Source of the DNA: Phoronis australis
Lineage: Eukaryota; Animalia; Phoronida
Assembly (NCBI GenBank): GCA_002633005.1
Contig: NMRA01000062.1
Location: 209,638-271,834, forward strand
Reading direction: 5' to 3'
DNA length: 62,197 nucleotides
Part shown: in pieces, positions 14,407 through 50,993 of the stretch
Layout: every line of letters starts with the position of its first letter
Position numbering within the stretch: the stretch's first letter is position 1
Translations under genes and position numbers: made by a program
The notes under the pieces: model-generated
Database searches by the model: none
What the model saw: the letters and a program-made list of their open reading frames with translations, nothing else
Told to the model about the DNA's origin: nothing

Positions 14407-17400
14407 TCATTTCACATCTGCCATGTCTTTCATCTCCGAAGGGGTGACTTTGTTGCGCCATACCATGTGATCTACTAATGCCAAAATAAGGCAAATTGAC
14501 ACAACCACGCCACAGAAGCCGCCAGTTACGACCCAGAAGTTAACATCATCACCGTTGAGAAGAAAGCTCCACGCCATTGTTGCCGCGTTGACGTCTTTCC
14601 TGGCACAAATGTCCACTAGTTGCCGAAGTCTCTCGTACGTTTCCGGAGAAATTCGGATGGCTTCCTCCAAGAAACAAGCTTGGATATTTTGATCTACGCC
14701 CTGCCAAGAAAAATAATAAACCAGCGCAAACTGTCATAGTTTGATAAGATACTCAAAAAAAACAGTGTTTACAAGTTAACTGCAAATATGTTGTGACAAC
14801 ATTATTTCAAATAATTGGAATTTTTACAGAATGAACGAATGTTTTGCAAAACTTTCACTATCTTCTAAAAGCGGGGCGGAACAACTGATACAGGAATACC
14901 ACAAACTTTGACGATCATCAGGTAAAGAACTCGTGGTCTTCAAACACCGTATCATCTTTCGGTTTCCAGAACGTCTTTTGGTGCTCTATACTAGTAATGC
15001 AAACAATACTAAATGACTGAACCGCTAAATCCAGTAGCAGGACCGAAAACCCAAAACATGACTGTTAAATCCAAAATCCGGACCAACAAATTCTATGTCT
15101 TCTGTCTGCACAAGCAAATCCTATGGCCGCACCATGCGAACCCGATCGAATAGCCTGGATTACGATCTGTCGGCCGGCTGGCGCACCTGTGAGATGCCAC
15201 CATTGGAATACACCATAGCGAAAGTGCATAATTGTTTCCACAATTGTTTTCCAAGTTTTAAGTAATCGCCAAAAGTCCACCGTATCACCTTCAGCACTGA
15301 ACGTAACTTACGGTGACTAGGCAGTCAAATGCCAAAAGGTGGTTGGCTGCGCCCCACTACAGCACTGCTTGAATAAGTACAAAAATAAAAGCATAAGATA
15401 TGGAAGAAAACAAACAAACCTTTACTAGAATTCCGTGATTCACTGGAACATTCGACTTCCAAGCTACATCGTAATCCTCCGTTATAAATCTCCTATTCAC
15501 CTCTTCGCCATCATTCTTCGTGCTGGTTTGGAAGGCTGCAGCGTATTGGTCCAGTAGAATACCGTCTATAGATTCGTTGTTCAGAGCATTCGTCAAACAA
15601 GCCCTCGTGTCGCACACTGGGAGGAAACGGACAACAAGGTTTAAAAAGATAGGAAGCTTGTTGAACACACGAGCACAAGCATGGCACACACGAACACACT
15701 CACAAATGGTATATGACGTAGACCGGAGGGGTCATTAAGGTTTTCCAAACTACCATAAACTCGCGGGTTAACGTCCACGACCGGGTAATCGCCCACCCCC
15801 NAAAGGATACAATAAACATATATATACGAACTCTAATGCAATATCATAAGTCCAATTTGCGCTTTCTGGGCTTACTTCTTATTATACATTGTATGTTGTG
15901 TAATAAACATTAAAAAAGTTTAGAACTACAGATCCAGCCTCTGACATTCCCAGACATCCGGGACATCTTCTAATCACAATTGGCTACATATGACAACTTT
16001 TATGACAACTGTGACGCACAACAAATGATGATATCGATGATCATTAACGCGCTGTAGCTTATTTCTAAAACATGTCTGCGGTTACCCTTTAATCCCTCCC
16101 ATGTGGTCACTTTGAACGTTACCCACACTGCCAAACTAGTAGGACTCCTCAAGTCTGTTTTATCGAAAGTCGTACTTGGAATGCTACGGCTAAAACTGTA
16201 GCCAGTCACGTTCAAACACGCGCATTTTATGAGCGCAAAAACGTTGCAACTTGCGTTAAGTTGATAATTTTTTTCATATTCAAACCGCCCTCACGAGCCA
16301 CGTAAATAAACGGTGTGTAAATTAAAATCGAAGTTATCACCGTCTTAGCCAAGTTCCTTACTCAGATCATAGATTATAGACCTTGACAACTTGTTCTCAA
16401 GCAATAACAAACTGGCAGTTTTTTCGAATCCTGGAAATCCAATTTTACTAATGAGTAATTTGATAATACTTTCAAACGATAGTTGCGTAAATCAAAATTT
16501 TGCGTTTGTAATGGAAGGCGGGCTTAGAGCGGTTTTAAAATAACACTCAGTGATTTGCCCGGGTAGAGTTCAGTCACAATAGGACCTCGCTAAATTACGT
16601 GAGATAGTGCCGTGTATTTTAAAGATGTATTTGCATGCTCCTAACTATGCGAATGTACAACAAGAACTAAAACGCAATGGTATTTGAACATCATCTACGG
16701 TAAACAAAGCGCAGTGATATTCATTGACAACTTGTAAATGTGAAAACAAAAAATTCTGCAAATAGGTGACCTTTGCACTAATGACGTACTTTGGGGACTC
16801 ACATAGCCCGCATCATGCATTGCTATTCCTCAACACCACGTCACGATACTTACTGGACAAGGTTGAGTGATTTACAGCGGATCATTTTCTACGCAAAACT
16901 CGTTCTTAAAAACATTTAGCAAATTGTCAACGTACTTCATATTTACATCGTCGCTGTATGTTGTGTTTCTAGCGAAAATCCTAGCATTACTGAAGTCTAC
17001 CCAGGTGTCTCTTTGTTGAACGAATGTCGGAGCAAACTGGGAGGTGTTTTATCTCAAACGACAATCCGCCTGATACTTTTGAGATCGAAAAGTGTCGTGC
17101 CTGAGCACCTGTTTTCAATATTCTTATGCGACAGTATGTATATGTATATACGAAAATCGTATACAACAATCGAAATGCGTAAAAGCCTGCGCAGTATACC
17201 TATTTACACAGGAAGTTCTGTACTTACAAGTAATTGTTGCACCGTTTCCCAGTGCAGTCACGTAGTCGTATGTTCCAGCTATCACAGCGACCTAGGGATG
17301 AGATTTCAGCAAACTATAATTGCCGAGACAAGAACTTAGTAGCGAAGGTTAGTTAACCAAAGCTAGTTCAATGATTGACAGCGTTCACTATAATGAGCCT

Positions 17401-20400
17401 TACTTTCTGAAGGAATATTATTGGTGTTACGACTGAAAAATCTATTTTGGGGATTCTCAACGGATGGGATAGACTTCTTGAAGTTATTGGCTTTGACCAG
17501 AGCTATAAACCAATAAAATGTGCCTGTTTTTATTTTTGATTGTATTACAAATCTCCAATTCTCGGCGGTTGTCCGAGTCAGACATTCGCTAAAATCAAGG
17601 AGGGAGGGTTGTAAGGAGGGAGGGCGGCTCATTGAGCTAGGGAGTCCCACATCCCTCTCTCCCCTTCTTTCTGTCACTCACTCTGCCTCTAACTGTCCCC
17701 GCGAATCACCGTGAGTAGACAATTATTCATTCGACCTCAACCATTTACTGTTTAAAATGGTAGAAAATTTTCAACAGTTCTACTAGACGGCCCAATCCAA
17801 ATTTCCAACGCAGTTCAAGGCCTGTTGTGTCCTACCTTCTTAAATGTTATGCTATCCACGTGGTGTTTAGTCGAGGTCAGTGCTGCGGTGACCACGCTCA
17901 TAAATGTCCCCATCAGGCAGATTCCGAACAGGATCCACAAGATTCCGAACACCCGACCGAAGAACGAGGTGGGGGTCTTGTCACCGTACCTGGGTAAGCA
18001 ACACGAACGAAAGTCACGGAACCTGTCACAGGCCCAGCTTTCACTATTAAAAACGTCTATTTTTCATTTGAGCCAATAACTTATATAAAATTGGTCTCAA
18101 ATTGTTCTTTACTCTGGCCAGAAATGATTTTTTTGCTTGAAATAAGCTGAGTGGTCGTTGTTGCTTGAGGTCATGCTGAGCACATAAAATGACTCGCCGT
18201 GTCACGCCAATTTATTGAGCTGACGCAATAACGAAGGGTCACATGAACTCTACACAAGACCAGAAAACACGTAAAGTCCCAGGAAGGAGCAATTTTATGA
18301 CGGTAAGTGGTCCAAGTCAAAAATTATTTTTGACAGAAGGCGGGGCTTGTACCAGTTTTTGCCATACATTAGCATATCCAGGTGGTGTTCGGCAATAGCA
18401 AAGCGAATAAAATCCACCAGCTCAAGAGTTTATTTCAACAACTGGAAAAACATGGAGTTTTAACTTCATAAATTTCAAATGACTTGAATAATGATGCATA
18501 GTGCAAAATTTTATAAAATGAGGCTCACGTGAAATAGGAGTGTTTTTTATTTGTTTTTTTTTTTGCTTTTCCCGGGCGCAATAAGACCCCGCCTCTCTCA
18601 TTACATTACACGTTTGAAGCAGCATGTCTCCGTTTCTCTCATATCATATTATATCATATTACACAATTCAAGCACTAATACTACACCTCGCTCTTCGTAT
18701 TACACAATTCAAGCAATAAGACCCCGCATCTCTCATAGTATTACACAATTCAAGCTATCCTTTGTTTTTCGGTGGCTCGTCACAAAATAGCCTCCGAAGT
18801 AAATTCCTTAGACGCTTGGAAGAAATGTTATTAACATAATTAACACAGTTGCAATTTACAAATTAGCGGACACAAAGGAACTTGTATTTTCAGCCTTTAG
18901 TTTCGAGTTTTCATTTCCAATCAAAGCAAAAATCTGTTACACTGTTGTATTTTTATCACCCTTCGCTGTGAAAAGGATGTCTTCTTACCCAACAGTGGTC
19001 ATGGTAACGAACGCCCACCAGACGCCCTCGAAAAACCCGGTTTGAAAAGATCTTGAAAAATGCACGCTATTCACATTACGATCCTGCAAAAAGTCACAAC
19101 AAACCAATTCTTACTTAACAACGCCAGGCTTCAAAGAAAAATGAAGACGTAACAAAATATTTTTTTCTAAGCACGTTAGACTGCAAAATAATAACAGAAC
19201 AATTCTTAGAGAATGCGTCAGATTTCAAGTTGAGTCAAATACGTTTGGCCGTAAAACAAAGGCATAATAAAACAGTGCTTACTGACCACGCCAGGCCGAA
19301 AAATAAAGCCACATAACAAACTAATTCTTAATAAAATATAACTACTCTCGCAAATAAGCTTTTTTGTGTGAAAAGCGTTTGGTGTATAAAAATAGCGAAA
19401 TTTATTTTCTCGGAAACATAGTCACAAATAATCATCGTTAATTTTAGAACTGTGTGTATCCGAAAAACAAAGAACGAATAACTAGGGAATGTATCAGGAT
19501 TTATAGAATATTGGAGTCTAGTGTACATCTTTTCAAAACATGTTGGCAAAATAAAACAATTAAAATATTGCGAAAACGTTACATCATGAATTTGTAAAAG
19601 TCATGAAATTTATAGACAAACCATTCTTAAACATTTCTATGCGAATGACTTCTGTTTTCTTTCATTCTAAACGCTGAAATTGGTTTTGAACCAATTATGA
19701 TTCATTTATTACAAATTCAAGTTTCACAAAGCTGCAACCCACAGCTTTTCAAAAAAGATCATAGAGTCGATCCTCTTAACACAAAATGTCTTGAAGTTGC
19801 TTTAAACTTACGTTAGTCAAAGAAATGGACTTCCGGTTTAGACCGCTTGCAGTTAAATTCTTCATTTAGACGAAGAATAGTATCTGGGCTTTGAAACAAT
19901 TGTCATAGTTATATATTGCTTGTGATCATGCTTGGCACATAGAATAACCCGCCGTGGGCAAGCCAATGTGTTGACCCTGACCAGGTCTTAAGTCCAGGAC
20001 TGAGTCACAGTCCGAGGGTCTCAATTCGGGAGCCTCGACCCGAGGGTGCTAACCCGGGGATCACAAGCAATAATGAACTAAGTTTTGTCTACCAGTTATT
20101 TCGAGACCCAGAAATCAACGAGTTGAAACTACTGTGTTGACCGCAAGCAGTCTAAATCAAAAGCATTTTATGGAAGGCGGGTTTAGTACAGATGTACTCA
20201 CCAGGGCCCAAATAACAACACCAGCTAGGACACTGGCAGACATGATGATAACTAGCAGAGGCCACGCTCCCCACAGCACTCCCAAAATTTTCGATCCTCT
20301 CGCTCGTTTTATCACGTAGAAGGAACCTTAAAATATCCACCTCGTTCGAGTTTCATTGAAAAAATCATTTTGGTTAGTGAGAACTGCAAGAGAGAAAAAT

Positions 20401-22454
20401 TCTGTTGCAGTACCCACTAAACAACCAAACGTAGGAAGAAAGTTCCACAGACCGTTTTTTTGCGAAAAGAGGAAGATCTCGCAAGACATCGGAAAATCAC
20501 GCGAGTGAAAAGCAAGTGTTTTGCCAGTATGCTCTTCAGCTTAAAAGCCTAGACTAGCTCCTAGCAGAGACCACAAGGCTCCAATCTATTCTGACTTCCT
20601 TCCATGCATACCAAGCAAACTTTTTCTTCCTATCTACTATTTTACTCTGAAATCGACTCCCACAGGACGCCATCTCACCAGAAACAATAGAGATGTTCAC
20701 GAGTCCCATCTCGAACACCAACCTTATTCGGTAAAGAATACAACTTGTTTTATCCTGGCACTTTTTTCATGCGCGCACCCAGGGTGTCTCGGGGGGCTCG
20801 AACGAGCCCCCATTTGGCGAAGTGAGCAAAAAGGACCGCCTCAGAGAGACAAAAAGTCCGAAAAAATGAGGCATAAGTCCATTAAACATGCGCAAACGCG
20901 CAATCCACAGTGGTGCTCCCGTTTTTTTTTAGTCCTCCCGCTTTTTTGTTACCAAAAGGTCCACAAAGTCAGGAATTCGAGTCCCCCATATTGAAGGCTG
21001 GGTACACGCATGTTTTTGTTGTTATTTTCACAGTTATGCACAGTTCAGTTTACAATTAACATGCGCCAACATATAAGGATCGGTATTTCGATCGTTTGAT
21101 GAAAATGGAAGAAGAAGAGAATATTTGGAAAGTGAGCTTATAAAGGAGGTGCCGTGACAAGGCGGACATCAACGTGGCAATAAAACCACGAAATAATTAT
21201 CGTGCATAGGGGAACAATCTGTGCCCCGTGTTGGGAGGGCCAGCATTCATTGCTAAGTTTCTCGACGTCATTTTAAGGACGTGATTTGGCTTGGTCTTGC
21301 ACGATCTCTCTTTTCGCACAAGAAATCCGGTCTACAAAACGCTCCCCTGGCTTAACTGGCGAAGTAAACCAAGTGCAACTAAAACAAGTTTTAGAGCTTT
21401 TAACATCAGAGAAAAATCCAAGGTTACATCTCCAGTGTTGGCCTAACCGCCCAGATTGGACATATAGCCAAAAACGACATATAGCCAAAAACACTGGATT
21501 TAGAAACAGACGATTAATTGCAACTGAATTACGTCTCAAAGTGTTGGTCTGTGCCTTTCACAAATAAAAAATCTTTGCTGATAAGAATTTACGAATCTTT
21601 AGGGCTGAGAACTGAATTAAATAGGTTGGAATTCAAATTGAATAATGGTATCATTTGCTGCGCAAAAGCAATATTGACTGTAAGTCCATGAACGAACTTT
21701 GTATCGAACGTGCTACACCGTAGCGCTAAAATCTTACGTATGTTACGTACTTGTTACATTTTTGATCGAAGTTGACAATAAATAATTGCGGTTTAACTTT
21801 TGCTGGCTTTCTCTTTTGTCGAAATAATCTCAGATTTGCTGGAAAATTTCCTTAGGTTCGTCACTCACCTGACTCACGTACATTAACGAGATTTACGAAA
21901 TCTTGCTATTAAGTTTGTGACATATTCCTCCATTTGAACAATCAATGTTTTGACTCGTTTCATCAGTGCTACGGTTTGCTCTGCCTTTTGTTATGAAAAT
22001 TGCTATGGTAAGCGCAAAAATGATTAACATGTATGGTTTATGCACTTTTCTTAAAAGATAATTTCCTTGTAAAATCATTCTATTACCTACCGGGAGAGAG
22101 AGGACCTGGAACAAACGCATGGCTCGGGACGGGTCCTCTAAACTGATGATCGTGGACACTAAGACTATAGGGAAACATAAACGTGTCATTACTTGTACTC
22201 CGAGTCATGTCGAACATATTTTTCCATCGCTTGCGAAATCTCACGTGCGTCCTGTTCTTGCAGCACGTTGCCACTATATCTAGCACGAAGTTGTGGAGAA
22301 CGCTGTTGCAGTGGTTACTAACGGCGTACGGTGGAAACTCCCACCATGATGCTGTGTACTCCTCCGCGCAGTTGAGGGGTAGTTGACGATAGTTATGACC
22401 CAGCTCTTGGCCAGTCGACAGCCCGAAGAGTAAGGCAAGCACGGCAACGTACAT
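14407..22454 (-). CDS. Paralogue A: GluR0-like ligand-gated K+ channel (SP-S1-M1-P[TTVGYGD]-M2-S2-TM), ~430 aa, 7 exons
   Basis: Exons are 22454-22091, 20326-20202, 19083-18989, 17989-17836, 17291-17228, 15616-15420 and 14700-14407, all GT-AG, and they join into one open frame. Motifs: signal peptide, WWEFPPY, M1 WPLLVIIMSASVLAGVVIWAL, pore EGVWWAFVTMTTVG|YGDKTP, M2 GILWILFGICLM, KKVAVIAGT, DGILLDQY, NHGILVK and a C-terminal TM. Confidence 0.88.
15285..15368. repeat. Dispersed repeat, homologous to ~35545-35642
   Basis: tatcacctt.agcactgaacgtaac...caaatgccaaaaggtggttggctgcgcc...ctacagcactgc occurs at both sites. Confidence 0.65.
20768..21012. mobile_element. MITE family 1, copy 2
   Basis: TIR CATGCGCGCACCCAG / CTGGGTACACGCATG, with ttttt on both flanks. 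Confidence 0.75.
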
Positions 22455-23276
22455 TTGCTATTTTGCTTCCAAGCGTTATAGTTTACTTCTCTACAGCTGT
22501 AAATCCCAACCACGTTACACGACGATCCGATTTCTATCTGCTGTTCGTCGCCGTTCACGAGATTCCTACTGCTGCGATTTTCAGTTGTTTATAACAAGTG
22601 CTTGGTATGAAAGACGTTTACATACCTTTGATAATGGAACACACTCCGCTTTTCTAGCTTATAAAAGTAAAGTTTCCCGCTGATCAATGTGTGATACCTA
22701 ATCCAATCCCCATACCGCAAGCAAACGCGACGCACTTTTTCGTGTCATCAATTAATTGTGCACGTTCTATGCGCTAATTACCGGCTGTTTATTTTATTCG
22801 ATACTAAAACTTTTCTTAATTGGCCTCAGTAGAATTTTTACACGTTTCTTCATTTGATGCATTTTACACCGCCATTTTGGTTGATGTGAATTCATATCAC
22901 GCTGATGATCATCATTCTGAAACAAAACTACTTTGTATTATTTATCGTTATACAATAAGTTATCATCATAAATTATCTCGACTGATGATAAGTCTTGCAT
23001 GAAATATAATGCCAACCGTTCAGTTAAATATGAATTCTTATGAATAACTTATATCATATAATCATTTATATGAATAGGAATAATCAATATGAATTGATAT
23101 TAGAAAGATTGTAGTGAATTACGTTCGGCCAAAATTACCTGTTTACCAGTATGATTCTTTTGTTAATGAATCTTCCAGCAGCGCAAATGGGAATGTAAAC
23201 TGTAGGTGAATGTTTATAACAAAATGTGAGAGAAGCCAAAGAACTGGAGTTGGCTTCATAATACTGACTGCTTTAA

Positions 23277-23600
23277 AAGATACTGAATCCCCGTTCTGTC
23301 ACCTGCTACTGCATCATTGCCGTCAATATTCCAGGAATGAACTAAAAAACCATACTCCCTACGTCACAGATTGAACATTATGATCCTTGGTCAGTGGTCT
23401 TTTCTCACAGTTGCCGTGTAATTTGCTAAAAGCGTAGGTCACGCGTGCCCGTTTAGCAGACTTAGAAAGGAGTTTTAAAATTTTCCTGCACACTTTCGAG
23501 GGTTGTCGAGTGTTACGTAGCATTATTTTGTTTCATAGAACTGGATGGGAAAGTCGTTTTCAGAATCTTTTAATTGGCCAAAACCGGGTTTGGTATCCTT
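23277..23600. mobile_element. Non-autonomous DNA transposon, Kolobok-like, copy 2
   Basis: Termini are TTAA-AAGATAC...GGTATCCTT-TTAA. Homologous to 10604-10950. Confidence 0.6.
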
Positions 23601-25897: not shown

Positions 25898-25963
25898 TGT
25901 CGTGCATTGTCACTAAGTGTTCGCTTGTATTACAAGTGACTTTGCGTTCCATGTACTGGCGGC
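25898..25963. repeat. 66-bp direct repeat, copy 1 (left flank of CLASP-containing insertion)
   Basis: tgtcgtgcattgtcactaagtg...catgtactggcggc is identical to 27011-27076. Confidence 0.9.
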
Positions 25964-26027
25964 ATAGTGTGTCCTAAACTGCTGCTTTTCCAACTTATTG
26001 ATTTGTTTCCCGTTTGGGTGGTTGTAG

Positions 26028-26277
26028 ACAAACTGGTCGGGATGAGACAGAAAACATGAACCCTGAGGACATCTACGACTCGATACGCAAAGCCTCCGCG
26101 GATATCCAGAACTTGAGCTTCAACAGTAAATATGACCACCCACCGGAGGAGGGTAAGAAAGAGAGAGACAGCACGTCTCAGGACAGCGGGATACAGAGCT
26201 CCCTGCCAGACGTCAGGGTGGACAGTCCAGACGGCAGAGTGAAGCAGACGTACAACCCATCACAGTACCAGGATGAG
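26028..26277 (+). pseudogene. CLASP1: Orphan internal exon of a CLASP (CLIP-associating protein) gene
   Basis: Translation DETENMNPEDIYDSIRKASADIQNLSFNS resembles the CLASP motif DTENMNSEDIYSSLRGVTEAIQNFSFRS (recalled). The ttgtag acceptor and gtgggt donor are retained. No other CLASP exons were found in the window. Confidence 0.7.
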
Positions 26278-26639
26278 GTGGGTGTGGCAGACAGGCCGGC
26301 AGGGGATTGGATGATGTTCGCATAATTTGTAAGAGCTGGAATTTTGATATAATCATGAAAAGTTGGAAGGTGATTGGCTATTCGAATCATTTAGAAGAGT
26401 TATTTTTAAGATGAAAAACTGGATGGGTGGCTGATTGGTTACATTATTTGGAAGATCTAGGAACACATTTACACTTTTGTGGCAGATTGCCAACTTTATC
26501 GTGCACATTTCAAAGTAATGTCTAAATTGTCTTGGGATACTTAAGCTGGAAGTTAACATTAACAAGTTGAGAAAACTGCACTCTTGCTTTGACTGAACAA
26601 AAAAGGGTTCGGACCATCTTCTACATGTTGTAAAATAGT

Positions 26640-26880
26640 GCCATTAGTGCAGGTGGTCTGATACGCGTCGCATCAGACGTGTGCAGGCCGCTCAGCCGAG
26701 CCCATTGCACCAAACACCTGAAACTTATTGATGTACACATAACACATATAGACAATACACAAATTAAGAGTTGAGGAGCTAGAGACCCGACTCAGGGGTC
26801 TAGCAGTGAGCTGAAGAGGGATTCAAACCTACGACCTTGTGAACATGAGCCAGACACTCAACCCACTAGGCCACACTGCC
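26640..26880 (-). mobile_element. tRNA-derived SINE
   Basis: The minus-strand head GGCAGTGTGGCCTAGTGG...GGTTTGAATCC has Pol III A and B boxes, but its cloverleaf stems do not pair. The downstream part recurs at 9339-9414. Confidence 0.6.
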
Positions 26881-27010: not shown

Positions 27011-27076
27011 TGTCGTGCATTGTCACTAAGTGTTCGCTTGTATTACAAGTGACTTTGCGTTCCATGTACTGGCGGC
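27011..27076. repeat. 66-bp direct repeat, copy 2 (right flank of CLASP-containing insertion)
   Basis: Identical to 25898-25963. Confidence 0.9.
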
Positions 27077-27156: not shown

Positions 27157-30100
27157 TTAGGCATGGATGGAAACTGCGCTTTTATTGCGATTGATCAAGT
27201 AATCCACAAGTGCCATAATTAGGCAGATCACAATGACTGAAGCAAAGGACACGCCGGTGCCAATCCAGAATGTGAAGTCGTCTCCATTCGTCAGATACTC
27301 AGACGCAATCACACCCGCTTTCAACTTGCTCATTTTTCGTTTTCCAGCAGTCATAAGATGGCGCAACCTGTCAAACGTTTTAAGCGACATCTTGTTCGCC
27401 GCGTCCGAGAAACAGTGCAGAAGACTTTGATCCACACCCTGTCAATATGTAAAGTGTAAATGACTTGTAAGTACATAGTGGTGATAGTGACGACACAACA
27501 ACAACAGAATTAATAATGTGAAGCATGAAACAGGGGCGGATCCAAGATTTTGAGTTGGGGGGGCAGGGCACAGGAATAACCAGAATTTCTCTACACGCGC
27601 GCGCCCAGCCTAAAATGTAGGGATGCAGGGTCTCGAACTTTTGGGTTTGCGTACCTTATTACTAAAAAAAAGTAAGCGGGCTTTGTTCATTCGTTGTGCA
27701 TTCGCCCCCCGAGCCCCCTGTGTGCGCGATGGGTGCCAAATGGTACCTGGGAGAATTTTAGGGGGGCCATGGCTCCCTTGGACCCCTTTAAATCCACCAC
27801 TGTGTACCGAGTGTTAGTCAAGGGAGAAATCAACGATTTATTGGACTTCAAAACCCCATTTCCCCGGACTTCAAAACCAGATGAATGGACTGCAAAACCC
27901 AGTGGCCGGTGTTCTAACTTGGTGGTCGGACTTCAAAACACGATGCCCGGTACCTCAAAACCAGATGGCGGCACCCCAAAAATGGTTGGCAGGACCTAAA
28001 ACGTGTTGGCTGGTGCTCAAACACAATGGTCGAACAAATCACCGGCCAACTGGTTATAGCACCGGTCATTGTGTTTTGGGACCAGCCGACTAGTTTTTTG
28101 GGGTGAGGCCATCTGGTTTTGAGGAACCGGACATCGTGTTTTGAAGTCCGACCACCAAGTTAGAACACCGGCCATCGCGTTTTGAAGTCCGGATAACACA
28201 TTTGATCACCGGCCATTTGGTTTTGCAGTCCATCCGACTGGATTTGAAGTCCGGGCAAGTGGTTTTGAAGTCCAACCAATTGTTGATTGCCCTCTTGTTA
28301 ATGTAGACTTATAGTCTTAATGCTCAGAATGCCCCCTTGTGGTGGCAAATCCTAGCCTGAATGTGAGCACTATTTTACCAACCTTCAACGTTTTATAAAG
28401 TGCACGAACTGTGGATAAGAAACGAAATTTCAAACAAACCGTGACAAGAATTCCATGATTGACTGGAAGGTTTGATTTCCAGGCGACTTCCATGTCTTCC
28501 AGAAACTCCCCTTTTCGTAGAGACGTCTTGTCATTTTCATCCAAATTATGTTTATAGACGGCTGCGTACTGGTCAAGCAGTATGCCGTCAAGAGGGCGAT
28601 TTTCGTCGAGCAACCTACGCTTCAAACATCCCCTGTTTTCACACACTGAAACGGAGCGCAGATTACTGGGTAAAATGCGACGACCACAAGATGGCAATAA
28701 CGATCCTGTTAAAACTGCATTTCCTTCTACAAAGAAATGCGAAAACCAAAATCATAACTAAATCGCCCCAGTAACCCAATAAACTCGGTCTCATTATGCT
28801 TTTCACATCCTCCCCTTACAAAAATTTGGCAGCCTTGACCCAGTCGCAAGAATTTTTTTCTCAACGCCAAACAATTGACGTAACCGATGCTATCACAGGA
28901 ATAACCTATGATGGACTTAATTCGGAAATTTTTAAGTAAGTGAAAAGGACGTGACACTTAAACTTTAATGAGCAACAAACTCAACCTCTTCCACAAAATG
29001 TCAAATTAGAGGTGATATATTGACTTGTAAAGAACAAAAATTTGTCTTGCGTTTCATCACTGCTTGAAACCTGGCTCTACAAGTGAAGGTCAATTTTATA
29101 GCAGTAAGTCGAATAAACCGTAAAGTAGTTTCCTTGAAGGATCGCCGGTTTATATCCTTTTTAAGTGTAATGAGACGGATAATGATGATCATGACGGTGA
29201 CGACGATGGGACGGTGACAACAAAGATGAAGAGGACGGTGATCATGGTGACGGTGACGATGATGATGAAGAGGACGGTGATGATGATGAGCAGAACTCGA
29301 AGACAACCTTCGTGGAAGATGTATGTGTATTCCGTGTTAACCATGCGGAGACTGGTTCTGTTGGAGTGGTACGGGGTGGTACGGAAAGAAGTGCGGTTGA
29401 GCGAGCTGTCATGGCTGCTGTAATATCGTTAACGTCCGGTAGGACACTATAAAAATATCCAAATTTGGCAGACTTCGGAACATCATATATCAGAGATGGC
29501 TGATCAGATTCATATGAAACGTTCACATACTATGTTTGATGCAATGTTCTGAAAACGCTGTTGTGAACTGTTTTTGAAATGTTTCGCTTGCATGAGGGGC
29601 TATCACAAAGATTCATGATTTTCAGGCAAATTATTTAAAGTTGTGTAAAAAGAAAACGAAGTTCGAAAACTGCAACAATATTTTTGATATCTCATCTTGA
29701 ACACTCACATCAAATAAAATTCGATCATTTTACTGATACCTTTGCTTTGCTATCCATGTACTTTTCTTGCTGGATTTTACTAAAAAGACACGGTCACGTG
29801 AGCCAATTGATAACAGATTGGTAAAAAGTCAAAAATCAACTTATACAGGCCTTTTTCTTTCATATTTTCTACATATTTTACTAAATGCACAGAGATGTCG
29901 ACAAGGTTCTATGTAATCTTAAAACTGCCTGTCGCCCTGATAAGTCGGCTAAAAAAGAAATTAAATTAGACCTTTTGCTCATACAAAATTGGTCTCATAA
30001 CATTCTTTACCGTGTTAAGAATCTAGTTCCGTTGCTAACAAGAACATCTAAACCACCTGCCACTCACAAAAATGCTTTGGGATTTATTGAGGTTGGTCAA

Positions 30101-36100: not shown

Positions 36101-37435
36101 TACACCAGCACAAATATTTTGTAGAAGAATTTTACGGGTGCACGCAATTTTGGATGAGTTTGCAACACTTGAGGAGCTACTTAGGATTTTTCCAGGCTAA
36201 CGCTCTTTGCTAACAAGCTGCCAGGGGGATGCAACGGAAATAAAACCGAGGGAAATAGGAAACAACTTCTTGCGCGCAATTTCAGTGAAATGTAGACGAA
36301 TATAACTGACCAGAACCCAAATGATCGCACCAGCCAAGAGGCTGCCTGACACAATGATTACAAATAAAGGCCAGGCGCCTTTCAGAATCTCCATCAGCTC
36401 GTACTCATTATCTTCCTTTATCAAATAGAACGATCCTGGAAAATAAAGTAAAATAGTCGTTAATCATAAGATTTCCCTAGTCTAATGTCTTGGGGATGGG
36501 AACGACTCCACGACCGTTCGTTGGATGGCTAGATTGCAACTTCGATCCCTTTAACTCCACCGGACCAGAAAACACGAAACCTGTTGTATAAATTCTACAC
36601 CGGCGTCCCCATTTTGAGCTTAGAATTTTGTGGATGCGTGATAATCATAGGTGTCGCCCACACACAATAGGCCTTTTGAAACTGACATGCAAGGTCAGAG
36701 AAAGCACTTTTTGTGAGCCCAAATGGATTATGTAACTAAAAAACAGCTCAACAAAGGGTTTACGGTTGAGAACATATTTTTATTGCCTCTTGATTATGAG
36801 TAACCCACCCCGGAATGCTAAACTCCACGCACGCACCAAAAATACTACATACTAGGTAACCAAACTCCATATCCTGGGACGAAGCTCCAGTCCGAGACAG
36901 TGCCTTGTTCGAGAACACAAGGACATGATTGCAGCAACCAAGTATTGGATCCGCCACCTTGTGGTTGAGAGCATCACACTCATACAAGCTCTAATGATAT
37001 ACAGATGTAACCGGCCGGCTTATCTTCGACTCAACACAGGTTTATAATAATTAGTTACTTACCTGGAGAAAGAAGCCCCGGTAAAATGGTTTGTCCGGAA
37101 GTTGGCTCTCTGATCTGACGATCGAAAACACTTATACTGTAGGGAAATTTAAACGTATCATCATCATCATCACTGGCAACCATGTCGAACATGTTGGCCC
37201 ATCGTCTGCTAAACTTCACGTGCGTTTTGTTCGTACAGCAGCTCGATACCACGTCTTTCACCAAGCTGTGCAAAAGACTGGTGTTTTCGTGTCTACATGC
37301 GTATGGCGCGAACATCCACCACGATGCTTTAAAAACTCTCGGGCAGTCGAACGGTGGTTTTTTGTTCGCGTGTGTCCCGTCTCCATCACACAGGAGAACA
37401 GACGACATGATGGTCGCTGCCGTCAAAAGATGCAT
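27157..37435 (-). CDS. Paralogue B: GluR0-like ligand-gated K+ channel, ~432 aa, 7 exons
   Basis: Exons are 37435-37063, 36435-36311, 34785-34691, 33290-33137, 31314-31251, 28645-28440 and 27438-27157. Exons 2-5 are 125/95/154/64 nt, identical to A and C. Pore reads EGVWWAVVSMTTVG|YGDKTPTSFLARLFGILW. Intron 5 spans the N-gap, but the exon set is complete. Confidence 0.88.
27531..27802. mobile_element. MITE family 2, copy 1
   Basis: Termini CAGGGGCGGATCC...AATCCACCACTG. The 5' block and ctgggagaattttagggggg-ccatggc are shared with 44757-44894. Confidence 0.7.
27819..28297. mobile_element. Foldback-type element with long inverted arms built from ~21-bp subrepeats
   Basis: The left arm (ggacttcaaaac repeats, gttctaacttggtggtcggac) is the reverse complement of the right arm (gtccgaccaccaagttagaac, gttttgaagtcc). 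The ORF track shows near-identical spurious peptides on both strands. Confidence 0.75.
29178..29290. repeat. Degenerate (GAT/GAC)n trinucleotide repeat
   Basis: Runs of gatgatgatgaagaggacggtgatc produce the spurious His/Met/Ser-rich ORFs here. Confidence 0.75.
33291..33372. repeat. 41-bp perfect tandem duplication containing the exon-4 acceptor of paralogue B
   Basis: ctgaaaatgaaacgttcatatctgtagtaatgggtgagcag occurs twice in tandem. Confidence 0.9.
34262..34357. repeat. Palindromic mini-element; related copy at ~10172-10253
   Basis: Hairpin gtcggatataacgtgccc..gagaaccagttt / aaactggttctc..gggcacgttacatctgac. The gagaaccagttt...aaactggttctc core is shared with 10172-10253. Confidence 0.6.
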
Positions 37436-42344: not shown

Positions 42345-42401
42345 CCAACAACGTCAACAACAGGAGCAGCAACAACAATAACAACAACAACAGCAACAAC
42401 A
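42345..42401. repeat. (AAC)n microsatellite upstream of paralogue C
   Basis: aacaacaataacaacaacaacagcaacaac. Confidence 0.7.
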
Positions 42402-42583
42402 GGAAATCAATGAAGTTCAATAGAAAATCTTGGACCGAGAAGTTTCCAGATTAAATCTGTGCCTGTTGTAATCAACAAAGATTAAAGTCGCCAAAAGTGA
42501 GCTAAAACTTTCAAAAAGTGTTTCGGAGTACCATAAACACAGTAAACCGTTATTGAACTTCCAACGGAAAAATATCCGCTAAA

Positions 42584-45500
42584 ATGATTGTCTATTATTG
42601 TTTGGTAATAGCTTCGACAATTATGATGGGACAAGGAAACAAACAAGCGCCAGGTAAAGCGAATGGTGCTCCTTTGCCTCCCGCAAATGGGAGAACTTTA
42701 TCACTGGATGGGTGCCAGCCTGTCTTCAAAGCATCGTGGTGGGACTTTCCACCATATGCAACGCAAGCTGGTGTCGATAACAGCAATAGAAGTACCACTA
42801 ACAGCGTAATAAGTCCGTTACACCGCCTTGTAGTGTCAATTGTCGACCACTGTTGTGGTTCCGGAAGTCGTGTTGAGTTCAATCAAAGTTGGTCCAATAT
42901 GTTCGAAATGACAGAGGGAGCTGACGACGACACGTTCAAGTTTCCCTACAGTTTGAGCGGCCCCGAAAAACAGTTCGTACACCTAGGCGACAATGTAGTG
43001 CTGAATGGAATCTTATCTCCCGGTAATTCGTTTTTTACTAATACTTACTTGTGGATGTAAATTTTAAATTTTTCGTTGCATATTACAAACTGACAACACC
43101 TACAAGCCCAGAAACCGCAGGGTAGCATACTCGGGTTTGAATAAACAATATGTAGCATCTTACTGGCACTTTCGTAATAGTCTTGAACTGAACTCTCTTC
43201 TTTCGTGGGGTAGAAAAATGCACTTCCCGTTTGACTTTCTTTGTAAAATGTCAACCCTATTCCAGTGTTGATTAGAAAGGGAAGCACGTGCAGTACTTAC
43301 ATTTAACTTTTTGCCAGGATTTGTCACGTTAGAAGCTTTAATAGAAGCTAAGCGTTTGCAGTTTGCAGGCAACCATTTTTGATATCATCGGTATCAATGA
43401 AAAAGCGTGATAGAATTCCCTTCAACAGCCTACTAAAACATGACAACCGCAAGCCTAGACAGTGACCACCGTCTCTAGTTGAACTACAGTCGTTCAACTA
43501 GAGACTGTGGTCACTGTCTACCGTAGGCCATGAATACGTGATTATGTCTACCGAAACATCTTCAGTTCACACGGCAATACGAACTACGTTTAGAGTTCAA
43601 AGTTTAGCAGACACGTTTTCACTGTACAAAAGTGAACGACAAACACGCAGCCTGCCTTTTCAAGAACGATGGTAGTTGATAGGAGTACGTTATCCATCGA
43701 TTTGAAGGCGTTTGATCGTAATCTTTTTGCATTGAAAGTTAGCGTATTTGCAATCACACAAACAATGTTAAATATTGAGGTGTTTTTAGAAGAAAGGACA
43801 TTTGGCCACAACATTAATCGATAAAAAGCACTAGGCCCCTGTACGCAATTTTTGCCACTAGGCCTATTAGCAAAGTCTAGTGACGCAGCAGGATTCAATA
43901 CAATTTGCCAAAAAGCCGTAAAGTGGTTATTGTTTTATGACATTTTCTCTTATTTCATACAACAAATTATTCAATTTAAAAACTATTGATTTTGCATTGA
44001 GTTTTGCTATTATGGCGTTCAATAATAGCGCTGGACATATTTATCAATAATGTCATAGGGTACTAAACAATAGGCAATCCTATGTGTAGACATTAGGTGT
44101 AACGTAATAATGTTTGAATATATTAAATGTGAAACTTCACGTCTTAAATTATTTACATCAACCTATAAGTTATTTCCCAGTCCCAACACTACAAACCGAA
44201 AAATAGAGGTCATACCGTTAAAATATAAAACTGACATCATGCAACGAAATCAATCCGTTTTCTGGAGGACTTCAATCATTAATTTAATTAGAAGTGAATT
44301 CAGTAACCCATGCAAATTTCAGTTTTTGCTTGATACGCCTCTGCTTTGGTGACTGTAACGCAAAGCGAATGAAAACCCGCCATATTTTTTGCAGACTTGT
44401 CGAATGTGGACCAAAATAAATAATTAAAAAATACTGCACATATAAAGTAAAATTGTGTCGATTCCCTGTACATAATTCTTTATTCAAGGTGCGTTTTACT
44501 TGGTGCCAAAGTTGAATAAGTCACCTCTGATAGGCGTCCTGGAATCAGCTTGGCCCCTTTTGGTCATCATCGTAGCCGCAAGTCTCCTGGCAGGGACAGT
44601 CATATGGGCTCTCGTAAGTAGACGGATCACAACAAATAACATATGGCTTCTCGCAAGTCGCTGGATAACATCAAATATCATACGGGCTCTCGCAAGCCGC
44701 TGGATACCAGCGAATAACATAGGGGCACTCGTAAGTCGTTGGATAACAGCAAATAACAGGGGCGGATCCAGGATTTTGAGTTGGGGGGGGCAGGACAGAG
44801 TATTAGCAAGGATTTTGCCCGTCAGACATTCGCACCCCCGTACTGCCAAATGGAATCTGGGAGAATTTTAGGGGGGGCCATGGCCCCCTTGGCCAAAAAG
44901 TGGGCGGGTTGGAATTCTTCGCCAAATTCGTCTTAATTCCACTAGACATGCTTCATTGAGGACATGTGTAGAACCAGAAAGGATGGCGGAAGAAAATAAA
45001 CGCGTTTTTAACTGACAAAATTAATTGTAAAATAGATTTTTGAAGAGGTCAAAACTTCTTACTTGGTGACCGGATTTGGACTACCGGCCGTTTATAATAC
45101 ACGGGATGAAGTACAGAAAGTGATGGGGAGTATTGTAGCCCCTGTATAGCCAGTCGAGGGGCTACGTGTTGCCTACGTGCGTTAGAAATAGACAAAAAAA
45201 AATTTAATGGTAAACTCTGTACAGGAAGATGGAGTCGAGTTCTTATAATAAAACTTGCAATTCTGAGGAGAATTGGTCGTATATGCCGGAAAGGAAAAAA
45301 TCGAATTTTAATGTTTCGGCTTTGCCTATAAAGTGGAATTGAATTCAATCGATGTTTCCGTTCCTCAAGAGAACATTTTTCACTGCAAGTGTAAACTAGT
45401 TTTAAGTGGCAAGACCAACACAAGTCTCCGCGAGATACCGCATTGCACGCGACTGCACTTAGCTTCACTTGTGAGTGCCTGGCGTTACGGAAAGGCCCCC

Positions 45501-48500
45501 CGGGATAGACAGGTCAGCCCTCGATTACATTTTGTTGGTTTTAGATGACTACATCCGATTAAAGAATCTAATCAACAATATCTACCGGTTGACTGGTCTT
45601 GGTGGAGCGTGTTAGTGGCTTCAAATTGGCTGGTCGTTTCCACGGAGTCGATAGCGGCGTATTTTCGGTAGCTGTTTGCACGTTTTGAAAATCTGATGGG
45701 TTGTTCTAAAATACGTAGGCCTATGTGATATGTTTTGACGTAAAATTTTGTATATTTTGGATAGGCTATATATTCTGGGATAGCAATTTCACTCAAACGA
45801 CTATCATTTAAAGAGATATTGGGTGACTTTGTTGTCGACTAACCGTATTAGCGCAGTATGAAGGTTGATTTTAACTCATCTGTTTGCTGAATGCGAAATA
45901 AGAATGAACGAATAAACTTGTTACTAATGAGAAACAACTACATACATTATAAAGGACGCCAGTTTATTATAAAGCTTCACAACTATAATGGTGGTTTAAC
46001 AAAACTTCACGAAAATGTTTGTTGCATACGCTAATGAACTTTTTTGCACTGATTCTTTGTGAGTACACACCAAGGTCTATAAACATTTACAGAGGTGCTG
46101 TTCACTTTTACGTTCTTTAATAACAGTCTTGAGTGAATAACTAATTATAATTATTTGCTTTAAAACTGCATCTACTATTTGACACAGTTTCCGAAAATAC
46201 GCCCAACGTTTCTAAAAATACACCCGGGCGTATATTCGGCTTCGTTTGAAGTTTTTGAAAAGTCGTTTTTCGAATATCCGCCCATGGGCCTATTTTCAGA
46301 AATTCTTGGTACGGCCATCGGTTTTACAAGCATTAAACAATTCTATTTGTGTTCAAACGTAATTGAATACACGAGACACCAGTTCGATTTAGAACGTCTT
46401 TTTGTAGGAACGCCGTCAAAATAATGAACAGTTTCCGAAAGTGTTTAAGACAGGGATTATCGAAGGAGTTTGGTGGGCTTTCGTTTCCATGACTACAGTA
46501 GGGTAAGTTTAATTTCGCACTACTGTTTTCAACGCACACGAGCCCTGGTTATGTGCACAAAAATGGATGTGGCAAACTCATCGTAGAGTGCCGACAGATA
46601 ATGATGATGACCATGGCCATGACGCCAACGTGGAAAACTGCCACCTATTGGCGGTAAAATGTACAACATAAAGTAGTCATCGATGACAAGAAACACATCA
46701 AAACCCAGGTTACTGACGCATACACAAAATCAAAACCCAGCGTATGGACAAATGCCAAAACACCACAAAGAACTAAGTGACTGCGATTACGTCATGGTAG
46801 TAGAAGAATATGGCGGCGACAAATATGCTTAGTAAGGTGAAAGACTTTGTTGGCCACAGCATCCATAACTGCCGGCGACGACGGAAAATTGCAGCACTCG
46901 CGGCAAAGATTACGGCACCGACTAGCGCAACTCAAATCAATATTTTCGCTTTGTAAGCACTTCGGATTTTTTATTTCAGGTACGGCGACAAGACACCCAC
47001 TTCATTTCTTGCTCGACTCTTCGGAATTCTATGGATCCTATTTGGTGTTTGCATTATGAGCGTGTTTACGAGTATTATCACCACGGCTCTCTCTAGCTCC
47101 CAAAACACGGTGAATCATATCACCTACAAAAAGGCAAGCGTGGCTGTTTGATATCAGTTGAAGTATACTTCTAAACAGTTTGTTTAAACATTTTAGCGTG
47201 AGGGAACACTTATAGCAGTTTATACGGAATAGCGAGAGTGGAGATTAATTTGTAATGGTTTCGACGAAGAACATAACTCTGCTGTTGGCAACTAATAGAT
47301 GTATGTGACCACTCACGCCTTTTTTCTCTTGTTACAAGATTTGTTGCAAAGTTCTCTGTTAGACGAATGATTTCATAGTAAGCCATTTTTCCGACAGGTA
47401 GCAGTCTTGGACAAAACGTTCGACTTTGTAGTTGCATTGGGCGAGAGCTCCATCATTACCGGTAGGTGGGGCTTGCTTCAAAAGAAATGCATCGTCCAGA
47501 GAGGATAATCATGAACTCTCTAATTTGTATGCAATGTTTTCACAAGTATTGAAAAAGGTCAAATTGAGTAACTAATCGCTTTTATTACAATTTCCACTGA
47601 TCGGCTTTTCGAATACTGAGTAACGTGTTTGCTGTAAAAATGCCAAAGCCCAACTAAAGCAGACCCAAGCGATGAAATAGGGGATGAGATGCACGGCAAA
47701 ATGTATAAATTGATAGGACTGTCTAGTTCATCGAGATCATGTTGATGAAAACACAGTGAAAAAGAATTGGGAAGGGACTCGCGAAGTGTCTTAGGATTTG
47801 AGAATTCGTACAGGTGTGGGCACCTTTTGGAGATAGTTGGCATTTTTTCCTTTAAATTGGTACATATAGTTATTAATTCGAGCAGTTGTTTAGACTATAA
47901 TGTCAAAGCAGACTGACGTTGACTAAGGTAGTTTATGCAAACCCTTTTTAAAAAGATTTAAGAAGGTCCGCTGGACGCGTTTTATTATCAATCGCTATTG
48001 TCTGGATGTGGGTGTGCTGCGTATCTGTCTGCCAGGATATTGATAGGGCAATATTCGTAGCAAGCAACAGGCAAATTTGTCTGGTCCATTGACAAGAAGT
48101 TTTAAAAAAGCGGAGAGGGCTTGACGATATGCCAAGTCAATGGCCAGAACTACATTACCGAGAATTCTTTAGTTATTAATACCACAATATCATTGTTATG
48201 AAGGATAATATGATTTCAACTTAACCATTTGGCCTCGAAGCCGACAGAAGTTGGCTACGAGTTTGCCTCCTAAACAGCAAAGCACGCACGTTCATGTGGA
48301 GGGTTGCGCAATTGGCGAGGACCAGGAAGGGGATTGAAGGGGTGGCGATAGGGAGGAATCTGACTTTGGGACAACAGGGACAAAAGTTTGGCGAATTCGA
48401 ATTAGTTGATAATCCCCTCCCTACAAATGTCTACCTTCTTACGAGCTTGCTAAAACGAACAAAGCGCCGGGAAGAGGTGTAACTGGTGACAACGGGGGAG

Positions 48501-50993
48501 GGGTGCAGTTGGGGATAAAACGGTTGTTGGCTATGGCTGGAGGGAAATAAAAATGATGTTACTGTGGGTCGAAACGGGATGGTGGCGGAGGTGAAATTGG
48601 AGTTGACGGGAGGGGGTAGATTTTGCACAGTCACGCATTTGTTAGCCCCCCCCCACTAAAAGGCAACCTTCCCAGTCAGTTTTTTCAACATGTGGCATTT
48701 GCGTCTCTGTTTTGGGTAATTCAAAGTTTTAGAAGGAATCTGCATCGCTCAACATCAGTTGCTATGATAATTGCCTGAATAATGAATATCTTCTGTCGTG
48801 GCCTCTGTGATCCACCGCGACACCTTTAAGCCTGATCACGAAACTGAGTTTACACGTTCAGTAATATTAAAAAAAAAATCGTTCTTTACAGCGTGCAAAG
48901 ATCGTAACTGCTTGAAGAGCGCGCTGCTCCAGGACGACTTAGATGGTATTTTGTTAGACCAGTACGCTGCAGCCTTTCAAAAGTCGGGTAGTCCTAACTT
49001 TCTTCAAGACTTCGATGTTGCTTGGAAATCTAATGTTTTCGTCAACCACGGCGTCCTGGTAACGGTAAGAAATATAGATTCACGAGGTAGCTACCTGTTA
49101 CAAGTCTTGAACATTGATGGCATTGACATTCGCATGAAAAGAAGCTAGGTGAATTTCATTTTTCTGACTCATAACTTAGGCCGCCTGTTATGTGGCCATG
49201 AGTATAAATTTGAAAAAAATTACAGCTACAACGGAAAATGACTGTTTTTGTTGAAACGATTTTCACTCGAGTATTTTTATGATGGAAGCCAGCGATGAAA
49301 AGAAGTCCTGGCAGACCTGATATATTACGAACTGATTCCCTTGCTAAAACTCTGTCAACATGTCGGGTCATACTGTACAAATAAATTTCTATCCTATTTC
49401 CAAGGAAATCCTGAAGTTGTTTAATTTAAGGTGAAAGTGTTTGATTTTCAGCATCGACGCATAAGTGAGATTACGCGCCAGCAATTGACCTTTTACAGAT
49501 AGAAAAAATCGATCGGTACACATCACTGAGCACAAATTCGTTGGATACAAGCCCTCTTAATCCAGAATACAGAAAGTAAGGCAGGCGATCGTCTGCTAGG
49601 TAATCTGAGGTTGATTTTAAATAGATACTAGTAGCTCGCTAGAAAAGCAAGATATCGCGAGATTGCGCGACAATTTACCGTATAATTTCTATGAGAACAC
49701 GTGATTTTGGCTGGATTATTCTCCGGCCGCGTGACATCACAGCTATGGAACCCTACCGTGTTTGCTCGTATCTGTAATTAACTGGAGTTTCCATCTGTTT
49801 GAAATGCTACTTAGTGCCGGAAATCTACACAGACCCTTATATTACTTCGTTTCCTAGTAGGCATACACACGGGATTATAGGTATCCCACAATCCTTCATG
49901 ACTATGACATTTATCGCTACCCGTCAAGGTTAACTGAAGCCTCCCAAACTTGATGGATTGGGTTGGTTTCCCTGACAAAATTACTGGGGTTCTGGTTGTA
50001 TTTGTTCACATGCCAATGCCCTGAATGGTGTGTTACGGTTTAGTGCTTTATCTTGCCTCACAATTGGGGAGCAGTGAGCAAGGGGAAAATGTATAAAACA
50101 ATAGCAATAAAACTAAACTAAAGAATAAGCCGAAAACTCTTAATGGTCAAAAATCAAATTTGCTTGATGAATACAACTTATTAGGAATAATTATTAGTCT
50201 TCATATACGCCATATGTTAGCCACATAACGTGACCTGAAATTAAGTTCGGAAGGACCTCTAGTCCGACTAAGGTTTGAACTTGGAACTTTCTGCTAACCG
50301 TGCACGGTTACAAGGAACCACATCTAATTTGACAAAGGAGCAACTTGAGATCAATTTATTTCTTAACGGCAAGTGGTCTGAATGAAAGTGTAGCGGAGGG
50401 TCACATCCGCTTTAAAATTCCACTTGGTTCCTTATAACGGCGTTACTGACGTTTCTCACTAGTTTTAGTGCTAAGCATAACCCTCCTCATGCTCAATATA
50501 CAGGGTTGCTTGCAAGATCAGTTAACTACGAAAAGAGAGTGCTCTCCTGACATACCAGAGGTTCATCATTGGTCATTACAGCATAGTTTTCCGAAACGTA
50601 CTGTCAGGAACATGCCTCGACAGAAATGCGAGTAGTCCAAGTGTATTGTAGCAGTTCTTGTTCTCTTCTCGTTGGCAGCAAGCTCCAACTGAGCTCAAGA
50701 AGTGCTTCTCTGTACATGCTGCTAAACAGTCTCCGGCATTGTTCAAAAAGTTGATGGCGTCTTTGTATGTTCCTGCAAAGTCAAGCACAGGAGCAGCAAG
50801 TGTTGCGTCTGATCTCTTAACCAATGGAAATGGTACCATCTTTTGGATTGGGACGGGGCTATTTTGTTTGATCGTACTCGTTATTTGCATCTCATTGGCC
50901 GTCATAGAGAAAGTGATGTGGCGACAGAAAGTCGAACACTTTGTTAAAGTTCAAGAAGTCCGCACAAAGGGTCTAAGTGAGCGTAAGTTCTAG
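42584..50993 (+). CDS. Paralogue C: GluR0-like ligand-gated K+ channel, ~454 aa, 7 exons (intron 4 GC-AG)
   Basis: Exons are 42584-43022, 44489-44613, 46408-46502, 46980-47133, 47398-47461, 48892-49064 and 50679-50993. Pore region reads ERRQNNEQFPKVFKTGIIEGVWWAFVSMTTVG|YGDKTPTSFLARLFGILW, followed by VAVLDKT, DGILLDQY and NHGVLVT. The C-terminal TM is FWIGTGLFCLIVLVICISLAVI. Confidence 0.88.
43456..43520. repeat. Near-perfect 29-bp-stem hairpin (mini-MITE-like) in intron 1 of paralogue C
   Basis: Arms tagacagtgaccaccgtctctagttgaac / gttcaactagagactgtggtcactgtcta have one mismatch and a 7-nt loop, with TA at both ends. Confidence 0.8.
44601..44756 (+). repeat. 39-bp tandem repeat x4 containing the exon-2 donor of paralogue C
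   Basis: Units start at 44601, 44640, 44679 and 44718 (cata.gg..ctcg(t/c)aag...ggat...aaataa). Confidence 0.9.
44757..44894. mobile_element. MITE family 2, copy 2 (truncated)
   Basis: caggggcggatccaggattttgagttggggggg...gggggccatggcccccttgg matches 27531-27802. Confidence 0.65.

Follow-up and report, generated by a model that had tools for sequence, protein, structure and literature searches.

The association of a ligand-binding domain with a K+ filter in one receptor has been stated to be found in bacteria only (Ger et al. 2010, PMC2950845). GluR0 from Synechocystis is a K+ selective receptor (PMC12332018). The ionotropic glutamate receptors (iGluR) of animals are listed in four clades (AKDF, NMDA, Epsilon and Lambda), and in the literature examined AvGluR1, from the bdelloid rotifer Adineta vaga, is the only animal receptor named as having a K+ signature. 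Here, we describe three paralogous genes, A, B and C, from the phoronid Phoronis australis (assembly GCA_002633005.1, contig NMRA01000062.1, positions 209,638 to 271,834; these 62,197 nucleotides (nt) are referred to as the window, and all coordinates are counted from its first letter). The trio likely encodes K+ channels that assemble as tetramers and open in response to a small molecule outside the cell, probably one other than glutamate, a reading to which we would give a probability of roughly 55%.

The exon sets were found by translating the whole window and comparing all frames with one another. With splice sites read from the sequence, each gene consists of seven exons that join into an open frame with no internal stop: gene A (minus strand, 22454-14407) encodes 430 amino acids (aa), gene B (minus strand, 37435-27157) 432 aa and gene C (plus strand, 42584-50993) 454 aa. 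A and B are in tandem, while C is divergent from B and lies head to head with it ~5.1 kb away; there is no fourth copy within the window. The proteins are 54% (A/B), 48% (A/C) and 46% (B/C) identical, exons 2-5 measure 125, 95, 154 and 64 nt in all three genes, and the intron phases 1,0,2,0,1,0 are common to them. Seventeen of the 18 introns are GT-AG, the other being intron 4 of gene C (47134-47397, plus strand), which is GC-AG where its paralogues have GT-AG and is supported by four reads. Each protein has three hydrophobic segments (M1, M2 and a terminal helix), a putative signal peptide recognized by N-terminal hydropathy alone, a TTVGYGD filter whose motif is split by intron 3, and a C-terminal tail that is short (11-29 aa) when compared to a median of 86 in the wider family described below.

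Genes B and C are transcribed. RNA came from three raw runs with the same species label (X1, X2 and X3, ~18-19% of each of which was read) and one contig set. In gene C, introns 1-5 are spanned by 5, 9, 4, 4 and 3 reads in X3, respectively, at exactly the predicted sites and on the expected strand, GC donor included; X1 and X2 yielded no gene C joint, and that of intron 6 is not among the joints listed. In gene B, intron 6, which lies between an S2 exon and the M4 exon, is spanned by 15 reads in X3 and three in X2 (exons 1-3 of this gene are outside the mapped stretch). For gene A, there is no joint among the 15 listed, 29 others being outside the listing, and depth is below ~1 over most of its exons. 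The first-pass annotation, made from the letters alone, had predicted three seven-exon paralogues with uninterrupted frames of 430-454 aa; this is borne out by the splice reading, with RNA support extending to five of six junctions in gene C and one in gene B, and to none of those listed for gene A. Transcription of B and C in the same run and their head-to-head order are compatible with heteromers, but prove nothing. Between paralogues, identity at codon positions 1, 2 and 3 is 0.58-0.67, 0.69-0.73 and 0.36-0.40, the third being the most diverged, and of the 12 exonic read variants displayed, four cluster in a variable loop of gene B and the remaining eight are synonymous. The intact spliced frames, RNA joints and codon-position pattern led us to reject the possibilities of pseudogenes, chance frames or a bacterial contaminant. 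Most of the RNA reads mapped are drawn by dispersed repeats at 44757-44894 and 33657-33804.

The layout that had been put forward for these proteins, in which the two halves of an extracellular clamshell (S1 and S2) flank an M1-pore-M2 module with a K+ filter as in GluR0, is supported by profile comparison of S2, by alignment from M1 into S2 and by models of a homologue, and S1 and S2 are predicted to fold together as a class II binding-protein clamshell. The S2 of the wider family matches bacterial GluR0-type S2 with an hhalign probability of 97.8 (E 9e-13). The AlphaFold model of a family member from Saccoglossus, folded with 117 family sequences, has a predicted local distance difference test score (pLDDT) of 88 and a predicted template modelling score of 0.76, and shows in order an alpha/beta domain, M1, a pore helix, M2, a second alpha/beta part and a terminal helix. 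Foldseek matched it first to the ligand-binding and transmembrane domains (LBD-TMD) of AMPA/NMDA receptors (E ~5e-13, ~430 columns, template modelling (TM) score 0.37-0.49). VIA realignment of Foldseek's top 1000 chains placed the GluR0 ligand core 1ii5 first (Z 21.9, root-mean-square deviation 2.6 Å over 212 residues), in a tie with the Nostoc core and glutamine-binding proteins, which lie within one Z. An independent Atlas model retrieved cnidarian clusters, then a cyanobacterial GIC-family channel cluster (TM score 0.61/0.74 over 325 residues). Folded alone, the S1 of gene B adopts a beta-alpha-beta-alpha-beta arrangement (pLDDT 77), for which Foldseek gave no match at E<=0.001, the weak rows being mostly binding proteins; Atlas scored exon 1 as Lig_chan-Glu_bd at 0.80, which is a lead only. 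Of the Pfam domains that had been expected, Ion_trans_2 was found in exon 4 (with Lig_chan below cut-off), but SBP_bac_3 was not: neither it nor Lig_chan-Glu_bd matched the S1/S2 exons scanned, and none of the 21 homologues scanned has an SBP_bac_3 match.

How do these proteins compare with known systems? Scanning prokaryotic genomes for the pore motif yielded 120 loci, all seven of those scanned carrying SBP_bac_3, Lig_chan and Ion_trans_2, and one having the Nostoc GluR0 ligand core as its best match in the PDB. These bacterial proteins are collinear with the trio from M1 into S2 and do not exceed 96 bits against a trio profile, although, since they were picked by their pore motif, only the similarity in S1/S2 is independent evidence. 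A pore-only bacterial-scaffold profile was dropped because it scored bacteria as high as the trio. Like GluR0 and prokaryotic group 1, the trio combines a signal peptide (putative here), a predicted split class II clamshell, a predicted inverted M1-P-M2 pore, TXVGYG and the S2 Asp with the absence of an amino-terminal domain, and GluR0 is the best structural match of the homologue model. Unlike GluR0, the family has an M4 and a cytoplasmic tail (none of 69 bacterial proteins extends that far), has conserved extracellular cysteines but no conserved S1 Arg, and is encoded by intron-containing animal genes. The terminal helix listed by the first-pass annotation is not part of the GluR0 layout, since GluR0 has no M4; it is M4-like and is present in the trio and in 110 of the 114 members long enough to test. 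With AvGluR1, compared here by description, the trio shares an animal host, an iGluR-type ligand domain, M4 and a K+ signature, but AvGluR1 has the full eukaryotic architecture (PMC12332018) while the family has no iGluR-type amino-terminal domain. Indeed, S1 starts ~30-45 residues after the start codon, and the RNA-supported exons of gene C leave no room for such a domain downstream of the ATG. Canonical animal iGluRs share the LBD-TMD fold and an M4-like helix (the above Foldseek match), but differ by their amino-terminal (LIVBP-like) domain, a Q/R/N site instead of a K+ filter and a conserved Arg; identity to them is 13-17%, and their SYTANLAAF motif is, as had been noted, absent from the trio, which matches it at two to three of nine residues at best. 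Finally, pore helix and filter sequence are those of Kv/KcsA-type K+ channels, the source of misleading database names, but there is a single transmembrane helix before the pore instead of the S1-S4 voltage sensor of voltage-gated channels, and the predicted orientation is inverted, with an extracellular clamshell. By these defining features the family is neither GluR0, nor AvGluR1, nor a canonical iGluR; it would most plausibly work like GluR0.

The trio is not alone. Alignments of exon 1 and of exon 4 retrieved no match in word-indexed protein searches, but exon 4 as the query of an exhaustive HMMER search retrieved 628 at E<=0.001, 150 of which are listed; among these, the longer ones align with the trio from S1 to M4 (up to 203 bits), and Nematostella, Exaiptasia, Actinostola, Montipora, Stylophora, Saccoglossus, Glandiceps, Ptychodera and Sanderia are named. 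Of 7992 candidates scored with a profile of 16 relatives, 141 proteins reached E<=1e-20. The best 120 of these add Actinia, Acropora, Porites, Oculina, Desmophyllum, Dendronephthya, Paramuricea, Xenia, Hydra, Clytia, Hydractinia and Rhopilema, as well as the annelids Owenia and Dimorphilus, and the listing ends with nine bacterial-type proteins of far lower scores. The family therefore ranges over hexacorals, octocorals, medusozoans, annelids and hemichordates, which confirms the earlier suspicion of uncharacterised relatives in other invertebrates and qualifies the idea of a local expansion: the trio is one lineage-specific expansion, within a family common to cnidarians, annelids and hemichordates. 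No sponge, ctenophore, placozoan, arthropod, mollusc, echinoderm or chordate is named in the rows listed, many of which are unnamed, in a non-exhaustive search; a metagenome scan gave three loci, all chance. Identity between the trio and its best relatives is ~26-32% over 330-410 residues, trio S1 and S2 score 53-55 and 39-48 bits, respectively, against the family profile, and a CC motif, M4 and an S2 Cys are common to the trio and its animal homologues. Cnidarian sub-families (P0201-P0222, P0244 and P0045) carry N-terminal CUB+Ig, FN3 or EGF modules rather than an iGluR amino-terminal domain, and Atlas has an FN3-bearing cluster of 181 members.

In databases, these relatives are labelled as uncharacterised, hypothetical or by a generic domain, and no description of the family was found in the open-access literature searched. 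It is mentioned neither in the parts seen of PMC2950845, PMC12226733, PMC13648236, PMC6307864, PMC3483616 and PMC12332018, nor in those of PMC12551409, PMC11479355, PMC9897584 and bioRxiv 2021.01.27.428399. The animal family is thus apparently undescribed and, since its members are already in public databases, novelty consists in recognising it and its architecture. It may have been overlooked because sequences with fewer than four SYTANLAAF matches were dropped by Ramos-Vicente et al. (PMC6307864), a bar under which 98 of 120 members fall, trio included (at most three of nine residues).

Two quick trees were computed, one of 95 rows (LG+G4) and one of 49 rows (mixture model), on sets that comprised family members and bacterial proteins and took in no canonical iGluR and no AvGluR1 sequence. 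In both, the trio is one clade (100) that falls with annelid and hemichordate sequences (Shimodaira-Hasegawa-like approximate likelihood ratio supports of 98 and 96), and non-bacterial rows are separate from bacteria (99). Approximately unbiased (AU) tests reject no other placement, whether next to bacteria (p 0.535) or to cnidarians (p 0.50), so that only the lineage-specific triplication is firm. Gene structure adds to this picture. Scored against both profiles, 127 of 128 short matches came closer to the animal than to the bacterial one, and 121 start at the same filter split as intron 3 of the trio. Continuation into the S2 strand is seen in eight of the 83 that are long enough, against 97 of 117 full-length proteins, which points to an intron at the site of intron 4 as well; one genome-derived exon match is identical to part of a protein that clusters with Montipora sequences. 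We infer a single origin of the family before the cnidarian-bilaterian split. Atlas feature matches for P0144 include short GLR-like clusters (430-520 aa) from green algae and diatoms and a Nucleocytoviricota cluster, which score 0.91-0.94 for SBP_bac_3/Lig_chan-Glu_bd and are possible outgroups.

PMC13648236 and PMC2950845 list pocket residues that give an approach to what the clamshell might bind. The pocket Pro is conserved in 100% of the members and a PY motif in ~90%, while the amino-binding site in S2 is Asp in 84% and Glu in 11% of 117 members, and Asp in all three trio proteins. The S1 Arg that binds the carboxylate is different. It is totally conserved in prokaryotic groups 1 and 2 (PMC2950845) and absolutely conserved in the animal iGluRs tested (PMC13648236), but an Arg at +6 to +8 of the conserved Pro is found in only 14 of 113 family rows, versus 60 of 69 bacterial proteins. 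In addition, the S1 loop after this Pro varies in length (20-33 residues) and sequence across the 113 rows. At the Arg position, the trio has D, D and E (A, B and C), followed at +8 by a basic H, R or K, with a register that is ambiguous by one residue. This makes gating by glutamate doubtful, and retention of the Pro and the S2 Asp with replacement of the Arg by an acidic residue favours a non-glutamate, amine-bearing ligand. Judging from these residues, the ligand would most likely bear an amine and lack, or not need, an alpha-carboxylate. As for the pore, 118 of the 120 aligned members have the filter TTVGYGD and the other two STVGYGD, a WW in the pore helix is invariant or nearly so, and this helix aligns with that of Shaker/KvAP. 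Filter conservation is partly by construction, as members were found via the pore exon, but a near-invariant and Kv-like filter and pore helix make K+ selectivity likely.

Several observations weigh against this interpretation. The full-length structure was predicted for the Saccoglossus protein, ~30% identical to the trio, rather than for the joined trio proteins, and the tie of 1ii5 with glutamine-binding proteins means that the fold does not single out GluR0; the structural comparison called for at the outset matched the homologue to both GluR0 and AMPA/NMDA receptors. The match between family S1 and bacterial S1 is weak (E 4e-4, probability 35), an S2-versus-S1 control being about as good (E 9e-4), and with the trio alone S1 is not significant and S2 reaches E 0.0014. 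The family also has no SYTANLAAF gate motif, and AvGluR1 passes Na+ in spite of its TXVGYG motif (PMC3483616), so that a K+ signature alone is no proof of selectivity. Lastly, the His/Arg/Lys at +8 in the trio might replace the S1 Arg. This leads to an alternative that we regard as unlikely, but would put ahead of the others, namely that these are amino-acid-gated K+ channels like GluR0, with the basic residue (His in A, Arg in B, Lys in C) as the binding partner of the alpha-carboxylate. The D/E-[HRK]-Q of the trio can indeed be aligned to the bacterial E-R-E with a one-residue insertion, the S1 model of gene B puts its Arg in a short helix (at low confidence), the nearest folds are glutamate/glutamine-binding domains and the S2 Asp is kept. 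However, this is difficult to reconcile with the variability of the loop, the scarcity of an Arg at +6 to +8 and the lack of a helix at this loop in the Saccoglossus model, when the Arg is conserved in prokaryotic groups 1/2 (PMC2950845) and animal iGluRs (PMC13648236).

Loss of this Arg and of the SBP_bac_3 match could alternatively mean that the clamshell binds no small ligand, the proteins being silent subunits, or leak or modulated K+ channels under the control of protein contacts, pH or ions. Constitutive activity is seen in some animal iGluRs (PMC13648236), and the CUB+Ig, FN3 and EGF modules of the sub-families would suit protein contacts, but the pocket is kept (Pro 100%, Asp/Glu 95%, PY ~90%) and the predicted clamshell is complete, which makes this rather improbable. 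Only a shade less probable, in our opinion, is that the channels are ligand-gated but non-selective for cations, and hence excitatory, for which AvGluR1 (PMC3483616) is a precedent. Against it, filter and pore-helix residues are near-invariant in cnidarians and bilaterians and match those of Kv, which argues for maintained K+ selectivity, a property that GluR0 does have (PMC12332018). That the trio was acquired separately and recently from bacteria, instead of belonging to an old animal family, seems very improbable, even though the tree placing it next to bacteria has an AU p of 0.535 and exceeds the quick free tree by 2.2 log units, and the trio has a long stem branch. Animal homologues reach 203 bits from S1 to M4 against the trio profile when bacterial proteins do not exceed 96, the CC motif, M4 and S2 Cys are found in the trio and animal homologues alike, and introns 3 and 4 lie at the same places in genome-derived exon matches, including the one identical to a coral-cluster protein. 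If the trio does encode ligand-gated K+ channels, the following mechanism can be outlined from GluR0/iGluR mechanics. The signal peptide would place S1 and S2 outside the cell, with a pore inverted as in iGluRs; the ligand would close the clamshell, which would pull on the M2-S2 linker and open the M2 gate, and K+ would leave, hyperpolarising the cell.

The exons are distributed as follows. In gene A, known by splice reading, exon 1 (22091-22454) encodes the putative signal peptide and most of S1 (55 bits to the family S1 profile), exon 2 (20202-20326) the end of S1, pre-M1 and M1, exon 3 (18989-19083) the pore helix and first half of the K+ filter, exon 4 (17836-17989) the second half of the filter, M2 and linker (Ion_trans_2, E 9e-9), exon 5 (17228-17291) the start of S2, exon 6 (15420-15616) S2 with the conserved Asp seen in the family alignment, and exon 7 (14407-14700) the end of S2, M4 (by comparison of this helix), a short tail and the stop. 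In gene B, also on the minus strand and read in the same way, the corresponding exons are 37063-37435 (putative signal peptide and S1, the part folded alone), 36311-36435 (M1), 34691-34785 (pore helix), 33137-33290 (filter end and M2; Ion_trans_2, E 6e-8), 31251-31314 (start of S2), 28440-28645 (S2) and 27157-27438 (end of S2, M4 and stop; M4 comparison), the last two being joined in the 15 and three reads above. In gene C, on the plus strand, they are 42584-43022 (putative signal peptide and S1), 44489-44613 (M1), 46408-46502 (pore helix), 46980-47133 (filter end and M2, followed by the GC donor, with a 264-nt skip in the reads; Ion_trans_2, E 1e-7) and 47398-47461 (start of S2), each followed by an RNA-supported joint, then 48892-49064 (S2; splice reading and RNA reads) and 50679-50993 (end of S2, M4 and stop; splice reading, at low X3 depth). 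The assembly has gaps at ~30580-31040 and ~52980-53070 (549 N in total), the first inside intron 5 of gene B, but the phase at which exons 5 and 6 of this gene meet is shared with A and C, and the gap thus seems to conceal no exon. Intron 6 of gene B harbours a 41-nt tandem and inverted repeat element (27856-28290).

Elsewhere in the window, a spliced gene on the plus strand (2556-7323) with TM2 (E 2.5e-13) and DnaJ (E 4.9e-20) domains, an architecture that we take to be that of DNAJC22, is an ordinary eukaryotic neighbour. Between A and B, an exon-like frame of 107 aa (26002-26325, plus strand), with no Pfam match at cut-off, lies in a bin with a depth of 26-37 on one strand in X1 and X2, and a 66-nt stretch just upstream of it (25898-25963) is repeated exactly at 27011-27076; this frame may be a captured fragment or the final exon of some other gene. 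Minus-strand exon-like frames at 57815-58090, 59358-59801 and 61182-61433, with no Pfam match, are probably part of another gene (57815-61433), and a Pfam scan of 37 other open reading frames of the window gave no match.

Taken as a whole, the family may represent an undescribed branch of the iGluR superfamily that was present in the cnidarian-bilaterian ancestor and expanded in cnidarians, made up of true ligand-gated K+ channels with the architecture of GluR0 plus M4, without an amino-terminal domain and responding to a non-glutamate signal, a tentative proposal to which we would give slightly less than even odds. If true, animals would have a fast mechanism of inhibition or chemosensation that relies on neither chloride channels nor G-protein-coupled receptors, and the family would preserve a predicted intermediate between bacterial and eukaryotic glutamate receptors, which bears on whether M4 was gained before or after the amino-terminal domain. 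The model cnidarians Nematostella, Hydra, Clytia and Hydractinia, as well as annelids and hemichordates, would gain a candidate class of K+ channels gated directly by a ligand. This would have implications for how inhibition and chemosensation operated when nervous systems were young, and a K+ channel of this kind, natural and eukaryotic, would be of use as a chemogenetic silencer.

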